In this document: one piece after another, positions 29,532 to 35,372 of the stretch
Layout: each line of letters starts with the position of its first letter
Numbering within the stretch: the stretch's first letter is position 1
Source of the DNA: Escherichia coli
GTDB lineage: Bacteria; Pseudomonadota; Gammaproteobacteria; Enterobacterales; Enterobacteriaceae
Strand: one strand, 5' to 3'
DNA: 64,000 bases
NCBI RefSeq assembly: GCF_003334815.1
Contig: NZ_QOWO01000006.1
Made by a program: the position numbers and the translations under genes
Notes under the pieces: model-generated
Told to the model about the DNA's origin: nothing
The model's database searches: none
The model's input: only the letters and a program-made list of their open reading frames with translations

Positions 29532-31109
29532 ATGACGGAAAACATTCATAAGCATCGCATCCTCATTCTGGACTTCGGTTCTCAGTACACTCAACTGGTT
29601 GCGCGCCGCGTGCGTGAGCTGGGTGTTTACTGCGAACTGTGGGCGTGGGATGTGACAGAAGCACAAATTCGTGACTTCAATCCAAGCGGCATTATTCTTT
29701 CCGGCGGCCCGGAAAGTACTACTGAAGAAAACAGTCCGCGTGCGCCGCAGTATGTCTTTGAAGCAGGCGTACCGGTATTCGGCGTTTGCTATGGCATGCA
29801 GACCATGGCAATGCAGTTGGGCGGTCACGTTGAAGCCTCTAACGAACGTGAATTTGGCTACGCGCAGGTTGAAGTCGTAAACGACAGCGCACTGGTTCGC
29901 GGTATCGAAGATGCGCTGACCGCAGACGGTAAACCGCTGCTCGATGTCTGGATGAGCCACGGCGATAAAGTTACCGCTATTCCGTCCGACTTCATCACCG
30001 TAGCCAGCACCGAAAGCTGCCCGTTTGCCATTATGGCTAACGAAGAAAAACGCTTCTATGGCGTACAGTTCCACCCGGAAGTGACTCACACCCGCCAGGG
30101 TATGCGCATGCTGGAGCGTTTTGTGCGTGATATCTGCCAGTGTGAAGCCCTGTGGACGCCAGCGAAAATTATCGACGATGCTGTAGCTCGCATCCGCGAG
30201 CAGGTAGGCGACGATAAAGTCATCCTCGGCCTCTCTGGTGGTGTGGATTCCTCCGTAACCGCAATGCTGCTGCACCGCGCTATCGGTAAAAACCTGACTT
30301 GCGTATTCGTCGACAACGGCCTGCTGCGCCTCAACGAAGCAGAGCAGGTTCTGGATATGTTTGGCGATCACTTTGGTCTTAACATTGTTCACGTACCGGC
30401 AGAAGATCGCTTCCTGTCAGCGCTGGCTGGCGAAAACGATCCGGAAGCAAAACGTAAAATCATCGGTCGCGTTTTCGTTGAAGTATTCGATGAAGAAGCG
30501 CTGAAACTGGAAGACGTGAAGTGGCTGGCGCAGGGCACCATCTACCCTGACGTTATCGAATCTGCGGCGTCTGCAACCGGTAAAGCACACGTCATCAAAT
30601 CTCACCACAACGTGGGCGGCCTGCCGAAAGAGATGAAGATGGGCCTGGTTGAACCGCTGAAAGAGCTGTTCAAAGACGAAGTGCGTAAGATTGGTCTGGA
30701 GCTGGGCCTGCCGTACGACATGCTGTACCGTCACCCGTTCCCGGGACCAGGCCTTGGCGTTCGTGTTCTGGGTGAAGTGAAGAAAGAGTACTGTGACCTG
30801 CTGCGCCGTGCTGACGCCATCTTCATTGAAGAACTGCGTAAAGCGGACCTGTACGACAAAGTCAGCCAGGCGTTCACTGTGTTCCTGCCGGTACGTTCCG
30901 TTGGCGTAATGGGCGATGGTCGTAAGTATGACTGGGTTGTCTCTCTGCGTGCTGTCGAAACCATCGACTTTATGACCGCACACTGGGCGCATCTGCCGTA
31001 CGATTTCCTCGGTCGCGTTTCCAACCGCATTATCAATGAAGTGAACGGTATTTCCCGCGTGGTGTATGACATCAGCGGCAAGCCGCCAGCTACCATTGAG
31101 TGGGAATGA
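29532..31109 (+). CDS. guaA: GMP synthase (glutamine-hydrolysing), 525 aa
   Basis: Track ORF; GATase nucleophile GVCYGMQ; PP-loop SGGVDSS. Confidence 0.95.
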
Positions 31110-31134
31110 TTTGACCCTGCACTATGAATGAACA

Positions 31135-31163
31135 AAACCCTCTGTTACTACAGAGGGTTTTTT
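31135..31163. terminator. Bidirectional terminator between convergent guaA and yfgI
   Basis: AAAACCCTCTG-TTACTAC-CAGAGGGTTTTTT. Confidence 0.8.
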
Positions 31164-31201
31164 ATCTTCAAGAATTATAGGATTGAAGTTACTAACATCG
31201 A

Positions 31202-31741
31202 TTAATTAAACCAGCTGTCCGATTTGTTCTCTTCTGCTTTGCCCACGCTTTTCATCAGATCGCGACCGCCTTCAGTCATATTTCTGTTGGCGTCAGCTTC
31301 AGATTGCACCACATCGGTTTGCGCAGCTTTGTGCTTCAGTTCCTGATCGATAAATTCGTTTTCTCGCTTAACGCGGGCTTCTTCTTTCGCCAGCGCCAGT
31401 TTTTGTTTCTGAATCTCTAAGCTGCGTAGCTCATCTTCATAACTTTGATCGCGTTTTTTGTCCGCAGAGGCTTCGGCGTCCAGTTTATCCTGACGAGCTT
31501 TCTTATTTGCCGCTGCCGTTGCCGCTCTTTTGTTAGCGGCGGCCTGGGCATTTGCGCGACGTTGCTTCTCTTGCTGGATTTCCCTGTTGCGCTCCGCGAC
31601 CCATTCGTCATGCTGCCTTTGCTCTTCATTTTTACCTTGCTGTTCCGCTTCTGCGACAGCAGAGAGTTGATCCTGCAATGATGAGGCGATAGCCGGATAG
31701 CTTAAGGAGGCTAAGATGGCGCAAAGAAAAACTTTCTTCAT
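31202..31741 (-). CDS. yfgI: YfgI, secreted K/E/Q-rich coiled-coil-like protein, 179 aa
   Basis: Track ORF; N-terminal signal peptide (MKKVFLCAILASLSYPAIASS); highly charged low-complexity body. Confidence 0.8.
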   Translation of the reverse strand: MKKVFLCAILASLSYPAIASSLQDQLSAVAEAEQQGKNEEQRQHDEWVAERNREIQQEKQRRANAQAAANKRAATAAANKKARQDKLDAEASADKKRDQSYEDELRSLEIQKQKLALAKEEARVKRENEFIDQELKHKAAQTDVVQSEADANRNMTEGGRDLMKSVGKAEENKSDSWFN

Positions 31742-31756
31742 GACTCCTCCTGATTA

Positions 31757-32275
31757 TTAGCTCTTTTCAGGACATTTGGTATTTGGCTGAATACGCGTTT
31801 CGTTATACGTCGTGGTAATAACAACGGCTAAACCTGTCGTAAACTGGCACTCTTTACCCACCTGGGTAGAGGTATACACTTTGGTGCCTTCCTTATAGGT
31901 TAAAGAAACACCTTCCACTAAGGTTTTATCATTCACCATAGAACCCGCTGCCGCGCCTACAGCTCCGCCGCCAACTGCACCTGCCGTCGTTCCGGAATTG
32001 CTGCCAGACCCGACGTTGTGGCCGATAACACCGCCAGCGACTGCGCCAATAAGCGCGCCGAAGGCTTGTGCGTTCCGTTTATTTTGGGAGTTGTCTACGG
32101 CAACTTTTGCGGGAAGAATGGAAATAATATTAACGGTTTTAGTTTCTTGTTTGGTATTCAGTTGATCGGTTTGATAAACATCGGCAGCATGATCGTCAGC
32201 ATTTGACTGGCATCCTGCCAGAGTGAATGACGCTAACATTGCCACAGGCAGAAGACATTTTTTAAATTTCATCAC
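31757..32275 (-). CDS. yfgH: YfgH, outer-membrane lipoprotein with glycine-zipper segment, 172 aa
   Basis: Track ORF; lipobox TLAGCQ; Gly-zipper GAVAGGVIGHNVGSG...GAVGGGAVGAAAGS. Confidence 0.8.
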   Translation of the reverse strand: MMKFKKCLLPVAMLASFTLAGCQSNADDHAADVYQTDQLNTKQETKTVNIISILPAKVAVDNSQNKRNAQAFGALIGAVAGGVIGHNVGSGSNSGTTAGAVGGGAVGAAAGSMVNDKTLVEGVSLTYKEGTKVYTSTQVGKECQFTTGLAVVITTTYNETRIQPNTKCPEKS

Positions 32276-32585
32276 TATTCCTTGTTATACACATTACGAA
32301 AAATAAGACATTTAAGATCATCAAAAGAGGAAAGTAAATGTATTGCGTATAAAGGGATAGATTAAATTTATTAAAATTCACGCAGGGAATAATTTATAAA
32401 AATATATCATTACAACATATATATTAATTTTATATTTATTTCGCAGCCAAACAGGATAAACATCAGTCAGGATAAAGACGTAAAATTTAAGATGAAAGAA
32501 TATCTGCCGCTTTGATAATCCCAAACAGCAAAAGCATCCGACAGCGAAGTGCCGTTATGTTCTGTGAAAGTGGAGAAGGTAACCG

Positions 32586-32777
32586 CTAACGTTGTACCGG
32601 TGATTCGACGGAGAGTGTGGATTGCTGAGCTTCTTTTTTGCTCTGATGGTGCTGCCAGGCACCGACGGACGAGTAGATAAAACGGCCAAAGAAGAAGATA
32701 AAGCTGATGAGCAGTACGATACGGGTCATGCGACTGTTAAATCGGTGTCGTTTTCGCATACTGGTTGCCTGACTCAC
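32586..32777 (-). CDS. yfgG: YfgG, small single-pass membrane protein, 63 aa
   Basis: Track ORF; GTG start; TM segment IVLLISFIFFFGRFIY. Confidence 0.65.
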   Translation of the reverse strand: MSQATSMRKRHRFNSRMTRIVLLISFIFFFGRFIYSSVGAWQHHQSKKEAQQSTLSVESPVQR

Positions 32778-32987
32778 AAAAGGTTCCTTGAAGTATGTCC
32801 CACGCTGTGGACGGTACTTACATTAAGGCACAACAGGACAAAATGGTCAATTCTTCGTTATGTAAAAAAGCGTCAGTGGATACATATTTTAATGTTATGG
32901 AAGTTAATTTAATTATTTACAATGATGATGTAATAATGATGAATTAACATGATAAACGTAATAATTCATTAATCAGGGTTATTTTGT

Positions 32988-33001
32988 TTGATATATATCA
33001 A
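32988..33001. promoter_or_regulatory. FNR box in the yfgG-pdeF divergent intergenic region
   Basis: TTGAT-ATAT-ATCAA, exact match to the FNR consensus TTGAT-N4-ATCAA, about 130 bp upstream of pdeF ATG. Confidence 0.6.
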
Positions 33002-33128
33002 TTGGTACTTTCATATGACACTTAGAATCAATGCTCTCTATAGTGATGAATAATCATCATTCGAAGTCAGGTGGGATGCCTGTCTGAATACACCTCCTTC
33101 AGGATGTGGGGGATTCTGCTGAGCATCT

Positions 33129-35372
33129 ATGAAACTGAATGCAACTTATATAAAAATACGTGATAAATGGTGGGGGCTTCCGCTGTTCCTGCCTTCTTTA
33201 ATCTTGCCCATTTTCGCCCACATTAATACTTTCGCGCATATTTCTTCCGGTGAGGTTTTTCTCTTTTATCTGCCTCTGGCACTGATGATCAGCATGATGA
33301 TGTTTTTCAGCTGGGCGGCATTGCCAGGGATCGCCTTAGGGATTTTTGTCCGCAAATATGCAGAGCTGGGTTTTTACGAAACGCTATCATTAACGGCTAA
33401 TTTTATTATCATTATCATTCTCTGTTGGGGCGGTTACAGGGTCTTTACTCCCCGGCGTAACAACGTTTCACATGGTGATACCCGTTTAATTTCCCAGCGT
33501 ATATTCTGGCAGATTGTGTTTCCTGCAACGCTGTTTCTGATACTTTTCCAGTTTGCTGCATTTGTAGGATTACTGGCGAGCAGAGAAAATCTGGTCGGTG
33601 TCATGCCTTTTAACCTCGGGACTTTAATCAATTATCAGGCCTTACTGGTGGGTAATCTGATCGGTGTCCCGCTGTGCTACTTCATCATTCGGGTAGTGCG
33701 AAATCCATTTTATTTACGTAGCTATTATTCGCAATTAAAACAGCAGGTTGATGCCAAAGTCACCAAAAAAGAGTTCGCGCTCTGGCTACTGGCATTAGGT
33801 GCTTTATTGTTGCTGTTATGCATGCCGTTAAATGAAAAAAGCACAATTTTTAGCACCAATTATACCTTGTCATTATTGCTGCCCCTGATGATGTGGGGAG
33901 CGATGCGCTATGGTTATAAGCTGATTTCGCTGCTCTGGGCGGTCGTGTTGATGATCAGCATCCACAGCTATCAAAATTACATTCCCATTTATCCTGGCTA
34001 TACCACGCAGCTGACCATAACCTCCTCCAGTTATCTGGTATTCTCTTTTATTGTCAATTATATGGCTGTACTGGCAACCCGTCAGAGAGCGGTAGTCAGA
34101 CGCATTCAGCGGCTTGCGTATGTGGACCCGGTGGTTCATCTGCCAAATGTTCGCGCCCTGAATCGCGCGTTGCGTGATGCCCCCTGGTCTGCGCTTTGTT
34201 ATTTACGCATCCCTGGCATGGAAATGCTGGTTAAGAACTATGGCATCATGCTGCGGATTCAATACAAGCAAAAACTTTCTCACTGGCTGTCACCCTTGCT
34301 GGAACCGGGTGAAGATGTTTATCAGCTTTCGGGTAACGATCTCGCGCTGCGACTGAATACAGAATCGCACCAGGAGCGCATTACCGCACTGGATAGCCAT
34401 CTCAAGCAATTTCGTTTCTTTTGGGATGGCATGCCGATGCAACCGCAGATTGGCGTCAGTTACTGCTATGTGCGCTCGCCAGTGAATCATATCTACCTGC
34501 TGCTGGGAGAGCTAAATACGGTCGCCGAACTTTCCATCGTGACCAACGCCCCGGAAAATATGCAGCGTCGCGGGGCAATGTATTTGCAACGCGAATTGAA
34601 AGATAAAGTCGCGATGATGAATCGACTACAGCAGGCGCTGGAACACAACCATTTTTTCCTGATGGCCCAGCCGATTACCGGTATGCGTGGTGATGTTTAC
34701 CATGAAATTCTTCTGCGCATGAAAGGTGAGAATGATGAACTGATCAGCCCCGATAGCTTCTTGCCGGTCGCGCACGAATTTGGTTTATCGTCGAGTATCG
34801 ACATGTGGGTCATTGAGCATACGCTGCAATTTATGGCTGAAAACAGAGCGAAGATGCCCGCTCACCGTTTTGCTATTAATCTGTCTCCAACCTCGGTATG
34901 TCAGGCTCGTTTTCCTGTTGAAGTCAGTCAGTTGCTGGCTAAATATCAGATTGAAGCGTGGCAACTTATTTTTGAAGTCACCGAAAGTAATGCTCTGACC
35001 AATGTTAAGCAGGCGCAAATCACCTTGCAGCATCTTCAGGAATTAGGCTGCCAGATTGCGATTGATGATTTCGGCACCGGCTACGCCAGCTATGCGCGGC
35101 TTAAAAATGTGAATGCCGATCTGCTTAAAATTGACGGCAGTTTTATCCGCAATATTGTGTCAAATAGTCTGGATTATCAGATAGTGGCATCGATTTGCCA
35201 CCTGGCGCGAATGAAGAAAATGCTGGTAGTGGCAGAGTACGTTGAAAACGAAGAGATCCGCGAGGCGGTGCTCTCTTTGGGGATCGATTATATGCAGGGT
35301 TATCTTATTGGTAAGCCGCAGCCGTTAATTGATACGCTGAATGAAATCGAACCCATTCGCGAAAGTGCCTGA
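33129..35372 (+). CDS. pdeF: PdeF (YfgF), membrane c-di-GMP phosphodiesterase, 747 aa
   Basis: Track ORF; N-terminal multi-TM region; degenerate GGDEF (SGNDL in place of GGDEF); EAL domain motifs EIL, DDFGTGYAS, KIDGSF. Confidence 0.9.
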   Translation: MKLNATYIKIRDKWWGLPLFLPSLILPIFAHINTFAHISSGEVFLFYLPLALMISMMMFFSWAALPGIALGIFVRKYAELGFYETLSLTANFIIIIILCWGGYRVFTPRRNNVSHGDTRLISQRIFWQIVFPATLFLILFQFAAFVGLLASRENLVGVMPFNLGTLINYQALLVGNLIGVPLCYFIIRVVRNPFYLRSYYSQLKQQVDAKVTKKEFALWLLALGALLLLLCMPLNEKSTIFSTNYTLSLLLPLMMWGAMRYGYKLISLLWAVVLMISIHSYQNYIPIYPGYTTQLTITSSSYLVFSFIVNYMAVLATRQRAVVRRIQRLAYVDPVVHLPNVRALNRALRDAPWSALCYLRIPGMEMLVKNYGIMLRIQYKQKLSHWLSPLLEPGEDVYQLSGNDLALRLNTESHQERITALDSHLKQFRFFWDGMPMQPQIGVSYCYVRSPVNHIYLLLGELNTVAELSIVTNAPENMQRRGAMYLQRELKDKVAMMNRLQQALEHNHFFLMAQPITGMRGDVYHEILLRMKGENDELISPDSFLPVAHEFGLSSSIDMWVIEHTLQFMAENRAKMPAHRFAINLSPTSVCQARFPVEVSQLLAKYQIEAWQLIFEVTESNALTNVKQAQITLQHLQELGCQIAIDDFGTGYASYARLKNVNADLLKIDGSFIRNIVSNSLDYQIVASICHLARMKKMLVVAEYVENEEIREAVLSLGIDYMQGYLIGKPQPLIDTLNEIEPIRESA

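Follow-up and report, generated by a model that had tools for sequence, protein, structure and literature searches.

The yfgI-yfgH-yfgG interval of Escherichia coli: a mobile yfgH-yfgI gene pair beside a yfgG gene linked to pdeF

The present study concerns three small genes, yfgI, yfgH, and yfgG, that lie side by side on one strand between guaA and pdeF in a stretch of 64,000 nucleotides from Escherichia coli (contig NZ_QOWO01000006.1 of assembly GCF_003334815.1; hereafter, the window). A previous reading made from the sequence alone had taken the three as one co-oriented cluster of envelope proteins. That grouping does not hold: yfgH and yfgI are strictly linked in every lineage and mobile element sampled, with or without yfgG and pdeF, and yfgG keeps pdeF where yfgHI is absent. 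Because each unit occurs without the other, the interval is a pdeF/yfgG pair with an inserted yfgHI cassette. We consider it somewhat probable, on balance, that the interval holds two independent units, i.e., a yfgH-yfgI operon in which YfgI serves as the partner of YfgH, and yfgG with pdeF. Neither the genes nor the yfgHI operon are new; what has not yet been described, as far as the searched literature shows, is the strict, mobile pairing of YfgH with YfgI and the separation of yfgG.

A mobile yfgH-yfgI pair and a yfgG gene that stays with pdeF

A profile scan for YfgI, taking one genome per species over ~100,000 species, gave 21 loci, in Escherichia, Pseudocitrobacter, Citrobacter, Kluyvera, eight Xenorhabdus, and Pantoea latae. 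A YfgH homologue lies directly upstream of YfgI in 21/21 of these loci, and the junction consists of a stop codon, a Shine-Dalgarno sequence, and a start codon. Its length is 1 to 20 nt in nearly all examined loci, with outliers at 37 and 45 nt. Furthermore, among 1.84 billion representative proteins, a profile search found 207 clusters of DUF5384, the family of YfgI, at E ≤ 1e-10. Five distant members from metagenomic families (<50% identity to E. coli YfgI; 34 to 42% in the three that were measured) each begin 1 to 4 nt after a yfgH homologue, whose product is full-length and shares 44 to 50% identity; one of the five carries a C-terminal transmembrane (TM) anchor and is still paired. Four look-ups from the YfgH side (E. 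fergusonii, Serratia, Commensalibacter, and an E. coli paralogue) found a DUF5384 gene next in 4/4. These co-occurrence counts describe the sampled loci and are not an exhaustive census. As read from the sequence, yfgH-yfgI is a bicistron, i.e., a two-gene operon.

Neither yfgG nor pdeF accompanies the pair in Kluyvera, Xenorhabdus, Pantoea, Serratia, Commensalibacter, phage P7, and P2-like prophages, and yfgG is missing beside it in at least 12 genome loci as well as in the phages. Its neighbours include mgtA in Kluyvera and, nearby, nonribosomal peptide synthetase genes in Xenorhabdus. Only in the Escherichia, Citrobacter, and Pseudocitrobacter context do yfgG, a 50-aa open reading frame (ORF), and pdeF stand beside it, and even there ~1.5 kb separates yfgG from yfgH in two loci (L008 and L009). 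Conversely, yfgG is widespread in Enterobacteriaceae (Salmonella, Klebsiella aerogenes, Kluyvera, Leclercia, and Enterobacter), and the order ppx, pdeF (MASE1-EAL), and divergent yfgG is kept in Klebsiella aerogenes, Kluyvera, and Salmonella without yfgHI there. The slot between yfgG and guaA in these three is occupied by LysR and MFS genes, MscS, or an iron ABC transporter. The comparison shows that the linkage of yfgG is with pdeF and not with yfgHI, and that yfgHI is fixed in a variable yfgG-guaA slot in Escherichia and Citrobacter.

The yfgHI cassette is mobile and is found on phage-plasmids, in prophages, and in islands. Thirteen phage records (P7 and P1-like) hold both yfgH- and yfgI-type genes, and the searches with either gene returned the same records. 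In phage P7 and the P1-like phage-plasmids RCS47, SJ46, JL22, and phi456, the pair is annotated upf50.5/upf50.0, and in the P7-type position the late tail operon lies on one side and the c4-icd-ant immunity region (immI) on the other. P7 Upf50.5 and Upf50.0 are homologues of YfgH (67%) and YfgI (47.5%), respectively, in the same order, with a 3-nt junction and annotated signal peptides; they differ in being phage-plasmid borne and in having no function assigned. A DUF5384 gene is present in ~200 PLSDB plasmid records (searched on the YfgI side only), most of them of the P7 type, non-mobilizable, and about 90 to 100 kb long. No E. coli plasmid matched yfgH or yfgI DNA at near identity. Besides, paralogous pairs lie at the edges of P2-like prophages, adjoining a tail-fibre assembly gene; the E. 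fergusonii pair adjoins AbiH and smpB; and integrases adjoin yfgHI in other loci. Escherichia sp. E1V33 has a second yfgHI copy by an integrase fragment, next to fliE. In this copy (L014, 5459-5982), the yfgH paralogue is frameshifted over two frames and the adjoining yfgI paralogue is intact; in S. Typhi, too, the yfgH orthologue srgI carries a pseudogene annotation (PMC11619404).

In E. albertii and Escherichia sp. MOD1, the synonymous divergence (dS) of yfgHI from the window is at least 1.5, i.e., saturated, whereas that of the flanking yfgG and guaA is 0.02 to 0.39. Since the synonymous sites of yfgHI are saturated while the flanks are near identical, the sharp boundary of divergence in MOD1-EC7003 and E. 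albertii suggests allelic replacement of the whole cassette by recombination. At the protein level, YfgH and YfgI of MOD1-EC7003 and E. albertii (L004 and L007) are 85 to 87% identical to those of the window, and the flanking yfgG and guaA are 98 to 99% identical.

The spacer between guaA and yfgI (31110-31201) is an insertion hotspot of its own (loci L001, L005, and L035), where we found two DUF262 genes in strain mip270_04, an insert of ~4.8 kb in E1V33, and prophage TL-2011b in an O103:H25 strain. Phage TL-2011b was considered as a carrier of yfgHI and rejected, as its record holds host flank (a pdeF fragment, yfgG, yfgH, and yfgI) beside the prophage lysis genes. Both families have PHROG matches, phrog_1277 for the YfgH family and phrog_1094 for YfgI at full length. 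The former is labelled 'DNA methyltransferase', a name that also stands in the RefSeq phage records NC_019445.1, NC_050152.1, NC_031129.1, and NC_042128.1. This label is an annotation error, because the protein has a lipobox and a glycine zipper.

Predicted envelope proteins of the two units

All three are real genes under purifying selection. Each is present in 5418/5426 complete E. coli genomes and is therefore core. Pairwise comparison with sequences from other Escherichia, Citrobacter, Salmonella, Klebsiella, and Kluyvera gave ratios of nonsynonymous to synonymous substitution (dN/dS) of 0.01 to 0.11 for yfgH, 0.04 to 0.09 for yfgI, and mostly 0.03 to 0.19 for yfgG, for which two pairs stood at 0.28 (two substitutions only) and 0.54. 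A doubt had been raised as to whether the small ORFs, yfgG especially, are translated at all; the dN/dS values and phenotypes of yfgG and the detection of YfgI by proteomics (PMC9508795) speak otherwise. A contiguous yfgH is missing in ~41/5418 genomes, yfgI in 15, and yfgG in none. In E. coli strain C (locus L040), IS1 interrupts yfgH, and in several unrelated isolates the matched region contains annotated IS1 transposases. YfgI in E. coli is mostly 179, 177, 175, 173, or 170 aa long, consistent with indels. In strain mip270_04 (L001, 3642-3703), 45 bp with the yfgI Shine-Dalgarno sequence and first 10 codons are duplicated in tandem and in frame, which could give a 194-aa YfgI with a doubled signal-peptide start and matches the 194-aa variant P0024.

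The lipobox of YfgH reads LAGC, with Cys22 as the lipid anchor and Gln at +2, so that no inner-membrane retention signal is present. Residues 70 to 115 contain 14 Gly and 10 Ala. Cys22 and G73, G77, G81, G85, G99, G103, and G107 are invariant in 19 homologues, and the alignment further holds invariant Cys143 and Cys168 and a NETRIQPN motif. In Pfam, YfgH matches the glycine zipper 2TM family (PF05433, 7e-8), PF13441 (1.4e-4), and, partially, TraT (PF05818, 2.5e-6, model positions 78-172 of 214); its glycine-zipper matches in NCBIfam are sub-threshold only. An alternative start, ATG at 32272, would give 171 aa. The AlphaFold2 (AF2) model consists of a beta strand, a helical hairpin (63-88 and 93-112), and a beta sheet. 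Foldseek matches this model, at a mean predicted local distance difference test (pLDDT) score of 59.5 for the query, best to SlyB (7OJF; 7e-7, probability 1.0, TM-score 0.58 target-normalised) and next to TraT. phmmer aligns residues 8-164 with 5-154 of SlyB 7OJF (3.9e-10) and finds the TraT decamers of the PDB weakly (E 0.002 to 0.14). By sequence and predicted structure, YfgH is a glycine-zipper outer-membrane (OM) lipoprotein of the SlyB/TraT fold and belongs to the SlyB family.

The likeness to SlyB (7OJF/7OJG) comprises a lipobox, a glycine-zipper hairpin flanked by beta strands, and full-length similarity in sequence and fold. The two differ in that YfgH has the invariant C143 and C168 and the NETRIQPN motif, whereas SlyB has no Cys at the C143 position and the alignment ends before C168. 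The yfgH cassette is, moreover, mobile, a further difference from slyB, and we know of no DUF5384 partner gene for slyB. A preprint of December 2025 from the Raivio laboratory located YfgH in the outer membrane by fractionation and described it as OM-stabilising and SlyB-like; deletion of yfgH caused sensitivity to sodium dodecyl sulfate/ethylenediaminetetraacetic acid and raised permeability, with suppressors in clsA rather than in Mla as for slyB (10.64898/2025.12.22.696046). According to the same preprint, knockdown of lpxC, lptD, or bamA induces yfgH, and YfgH pulls down BamA, LptD, and outer-membrane proteins (OMPs), including OmpF/C/A, LamB, and TonB-dependent receptors. Earlier genetics also tied yfgH to lptD (PMC3219608).

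TraT of IncF plasmids (9FS5, 9FSM, 9E2V) is another OM lipoprotein borne on a mobile element and forms a ring oligomer, and it matches YfgH partially in Pfam, phmmer, and Foldseek. However, the match is weak and takes in only part of the TraT model, and no exclusion function is known for YfgH. TraT sits in the tra operon, downstream of traS (PMC11733297), whereas yfgH lies in the chromosomal order guaA / yfgI-yfgH / yfgG. The same structural paper reports no YfgI-like partner of TraT and leaves SlyB and YfgH undiscussed.

YfgI matches DUF5384 (PF17358) over the whole model (9.1e-62, positions 1-145 of 145). No mention of this family was found in the searched literature, and NCBIfam models cover neither YfgI nor YfgG. 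A signal peptide, MKKVFLCAILASLSYPAIA/SS (residues 1-19), is followed by a conserved N-terminal motif (20-41; SLQDQLSAVAQAEQQG), a variable spacer of E/K/R/Q/A (42-94), and a conserved C-domain of ~85 residues (95-179). AF2 predicts a single continuous helix of ~160 residues from 17 to 178, ~24 nm long, at a mean pLDDT of 87. Family architecture was derived by hidden Markov model analysis of the C-domain over 108 complete representatives. A signal-like N-terminus is present in 100/108, and the spacer runs to 50 to 138 residues, with 81% E/K/R/Q/A/D, 12% hydrophobic residues, and nearly no Gly or Pro. Hydrophobic occupancy of the heptad a/d positions of YfgI, in the best register, is 0.12 to 0.25 in the spacer and ~0.5 in the N-motif and C-domain. 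These values suggest that the spacer is a charged single helix or ruler, not a classical coiled coil; the conserved ends could still bundle. The term 'coiled-coil-like', given to YfgI in the sequence-only reading, is only partly fitting: one long helix is predicted, but the spacer appears too poor in hydrophobic residues (8% LIVMFWY) for a classical coiled coil.

By analogy only, YfgI recalls domain II of TolA and Lpp, as it would form a long, Gly/Pro-free helix rich in charge and Ala, of a length comparable with the periplasm and with a ruler-like spacer. Unlike them, it has no N-terminal anchor or lipid, and PDB sequence and Foldseek searches with YfgI gave no matches, as expected for a lone helix. 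A candidate Rosetta-stone fusion of YfgH and YfgI, the metagenomic protein P0356 (409 aa), was rejected, since its fusion partner is a repeat-rich helical region and not YfgH. In P0356, the DUF5384 C-domain follows a ~270-residue helical region rich in Ala/Asp/Lys/Asn, like the stalks of adhesins or tail fibres; a signal peptide is lacking, and this may be a fragment or a different architecture.

YfgG matches DUF2633 (PF11119; 4.3e-28, model positions 1-43 of 43); its N-tail is basic (net +5) and leads into a single TM segment. Invariant are the N-tail RKRHRFN.RM.R, Arg32 in the TM segment, and W41-x-H43-H44-Q45 just outside the membrane. These features show YfgG to be, by prediction, a small inner-membrane protein with its N-terminus inside and the motif at the periplasmic interface. 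MgrB, MntS, and AcrZ offer an analogy (~60 aa, a single TM segment, a stress phenotype, and a conserved interface motif); YfgG shares no homology with them, has no known partner, and belongs to its own family, DUF2633. Previously, yfgG was shown to be needed for Ni/Co tolerance, and sufficient for it when overexpressed (PMC6338753). A sigma-S peak in chromatin immunoprecipitation sequencing covers the yfgF/yfgG intergenic region, with the yfgG start site listed inside (PMC4447067), and an IS5 insertion in that region (32778-33128) reached 50% in a gallium-evolved line (PMC6928379). In view of the IS5 rise and the sigma-S peak, the yfgG-pdeF intergenic region is a regulatory target under metal stress. 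The statement of the sequence-only reading that these genes have little functional annotation is therefore outdated, considering the above work on yfgH (10.64898/2025.12.22.696046; PMC3219608) and yfgG (PMC6338753) and that on yfgI discussed below (PMC3536626). Its outline of the three products, i.e., a secreted YfgI, a glycine-zipper lipoprotein YfgH, and a single-TM YfgG, was borne out by the signal peptide, the lipobox with the zipper, and the TM segment.

A proposed partnership and its rivals

In the two-unit reading that we favour, YfgH is, by published work and by homology, a Lol-sorted lipoprotein whose glycine-zipper hairpin enters the outer membrane. By analogy with SlyB, it may oligomerise into rings that corral OMPs and lipid under envelope stress. 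YfgI would be the dedicated periplasmic partner of the YfgH ring, acting as a strut, tether, or regulator. One of its conserved ends may dock on YfgH, and the C-terminal domain may lie near the inner membrane, because some homologues carry a C-terminal TM anchor. A C-terminal TM segment with a Lys-rich tail is predicted in 4/108 representatives, which places the C-terminal end of those four homologues, by sequence, at the inner membrane. As YfgI is exported, the nalidixic acid sensitivity of a yfgI mutant could reflect a defect of the OM barrier rather than of DNA repair. YfgG, in turn, may work by means of its invariant W-x-HH-Q motif, which could bind metal or serve to modulate a partner in the membrane, for which the MASE1 domain of PdeF is one candidate.

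Several points weigh against this reading. The contact between YfgH and YfgI is one that we infer, and the YfgG mechanism is deduced purely from conserved residues. Confidence in the YfgH monomer model is low (mean pLDDT 59.5), and the published YfgH rings are AlphaFold3 models and analogy only (10.64898/2025.12.22.696046). The same preprint reports that plasmid-borne yfgH alone rescues the phenotypes, with the chromosomal yfgI still in place, and its pull-down text assigns the 17-kDa band to Slp and SlyB, leaving YfgI unnamed. The anchor-bearing homologues of YfgI are few, as given above, and the single predicted helix may be part of a homo-oligomeric bundle.

A bolder form of the partnership makes YfgH-YfgI a horizontally moving two-component envelope device, in which a SlyB-like ring would be joined by a ~24 nm strut to peptidoglycan or the inner membrane. 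The strut would tether or gauge OM nanodomains, or else mask OM receptors in lysogens. We regard this form as rather unlikely.

As the main alternative, yfgHI could be a phage-derived module for lysogenic conversion or exclusion, with a ring lipoprotein that masks OM receptors in the manner of TraT, Llp, and Cor. Lysogens would then be shielded from superinfection or serum, and the chromosomal copy of E. coli would have been domesticated for envelope robustness. The places in which the pair is found lend weight to this idea, namely P7 and P1-like phage-plasmids (with YfgI in the ~200 plasmid records), P2-like prophage edges by a tail-fibre assembly gene, and AbiH, the latter two being typical moron or defence positions, as well as loci flanked by integrases. 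YfgH also resembles the TraT surface-exclusion decamer in sequence and fold, its pull-down contains OMPs that are phage receptors (10.64898/2025.12.22.696046), and both families have PHROGs. However, the TraT similarity is partial and weak, and the closest structural relative, SlyB, is a host stress protein. PADLOC matches none of YfgI, YfgH, and YfgG, and no experimental exclusion phenotype is known. The core status of the chromosomal copy (5418/5426) and its strong purifying selection fit a housekeeping or stress role. We therefore consider such a module doubtful.

RefSeq names YfgI a 'nalidixic acid resistance protein', and it could be argued that the protein acts alone in a DNA-damage response, its linkage to yfgH being a transcriptional convenience. 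Entry of nalidixic acid, a hydrophobic quinolone, depends on the OM barrier, so the phenotype also fits an envelope role. In favour of a DNA-damage role, survival of a yfgI deletion mutant on nalidixic acid was 7% of wild type, with kasugamycin and ampicillin survival near wild type (PMC3536626). In contrast, YfgI homologues bear a signal-like N-terminus in 100/108 representatives and no DNA-related domain, and yfgI stays linked to a lipoprotein gene even in distant taxa. SdiA activates the orthologous srgIL operon in S. Typhi, and SdiA in Salmonella caused no significant change in nalidixic acid or UV sensitivity, a comparison that is indirect, as SdiA was varied rather than srgL (PMC11619404). 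A lone DNA-damage role for YfgI thus seems very improbable to us.

Finally, the view of yfgI-yfgH-yfgG as one co-oriented envelope-stress cluster, possibly co-regulated and by FNR among others, can draw on the shared orientation and adjacency in Escherichia, Citrobacter, and Pseudocitrobacter, on three envelope products, and on core status in E. coli, but it is largely refuted by the comparative data (at least 12 genome loci, as well as phages, have yfgHI but not yfgG; yfgG stands without yfgHI in Salmonella, Klebsiella, and Kluyvera), the 310-bp gap and terminator-like hairpin after yfgG, the ~1.5 kb insertions in L008 and L009, an FNR box placed for pdeF and not for yfgG, and the unrelated phenotypes of metal tolerance and OM integrity, and we hold it to be highly unlikely.

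The locus in the window and the meaning of the pairing

The gene order in the window, xseA-guaB-guaA / yfgI-yfgH-yfgG / pdeF / ppx, is that of an E. coli chromosomal segment, and the three ORFs are already annotated E. coli genes in an ordinary locus. guaA ends at 31109 on the strand opposite to yfgI. The gene names are confirmed by how RefSeq annotates matching genomes and by the spacing, which is the same as that of b2504-b2506 in MG1655. The sequence-only reading had placed the three ORFs exactly in coordinates, length, and strand, and the AT-rich gap between yfgH and yfgG and the FNR-box-containing intergenic region common to yfgG and pdeF were found where it put them. Its choice of a GTG start for yfgG also stands, since the N-terminal 'MSQ' is kept across genera and Met7, the start of many 57-aa YfgG annotations, is not, being Leu in several genera. 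The features are collected in Table 1.

Table 1. Features of the yfgI-yfgH-yfgG interval and its flanks (positions are those of the window)
Feature	Position	Strand	Description	Basis
Intrinsic terminator, bidirectional	31134..31161	.	AAAACCCTCTGT-TACT-ACAGAGGGTTTT; between convergent guaA and yfgI	Terminator scan, inverted repeat I1
yfgI (b2506)	31202..31741	-	179 aa, ATG start; DUF5384	ORF list
yfgH-yfgI junction	31742..31756	-	15 nt; Shine-Dalgarno AGGAGG at 31746-31751, 4 nt before yfgI ATG	
yfgH (b2505)	31757..32275	-	172 aa, GTG start; predicted OM lipoprotein	ORF list
AT-rich spacer	32276..32585	.	310 bp, ~29% G+C	Composition
Weak terminator-like hairpin	32539..32554	-	32 nt past yfgG stop codon	Consensus scan only
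yfgG (b2504)	32586..32777	-	63 aa, GTG start; DUF2633	ORF list
50-aa ORF	32795..32947	+	Hypothetical protein (WP_000017552.1) of the Prokaryotic Genome Annotation Pipeline in many strains; phrog_19889	
FNR box TTGATATATATCAA	32988..33001	+	Class II, -41.5 of pdeF promoter; -10 TAGAAT at 33023-33028	
pdeF (yfgF)	33129..35372	+	MASE1-EAL cyclic di-GMP phosphodiesterase, divergent partner of yfgG	ORF and annotation

The FNR box is the sole perfect match to TTGATATATATCAA in the 64-kb window, where 0.09 would be expected by chance, and its position at the pdeF promoter has been published (PMC3718329). With respect to yfgG, it stands 211 bp upstream of the start, which, as read from the sequence, is no activating position for yfgG. 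The promoter of yfgHI must lie within the AT-rich spacer. Scans of this gap for promoter consensus and for sites of sigma-E, CpxR, PhoP, RcsB, SdiA, and sigma-S gave weak matches of the AT-rich type only. Likewise, an Rfam scan of 30900-33400 gave no known RNA element (a human long noncoding RNA model matched by chance, E 0.8), and a search for repeats and tandem repeats found nothing besides the guaA/yfgI terminator. The 50-aa ORF is probably not a gene: its dN/dS is 0.44 to 0.92, the Salmonella copy contains a stop codon, that of E. albertii is truncated, and MG1655 carries no annotation for it. Its family, phrog_19889, appears to derive from the host flank inside the phage TL-2011b record.

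In the existing preprint, YfgH is handled as a SlyB paralogue on its own, and yfgI goes unmentioned (10.64898/2025.12.22.696046). Since yfgH and yfgI are adjacent in every sampled lineage, prophage, and phage record, YfgH deletions, complementation, pull-downs, and oligomer models that ignore YfgI may miss half of the system. According to the comparative data, yfgG is better studied with pdeF than with yfgHI. Carriage of the pair by phages and prophages also raises the possibility that ring lipoproteins of the SlyB type are used for lysogenic conversion, in parallel to TraT. If the two-component device should prove true, the 'nalidixic acid resistance protein' YfgI would be reassigned to an OM barrier function, and the SlyB/TraT ring family would be a platform that recruits periplasm-spanning partners.

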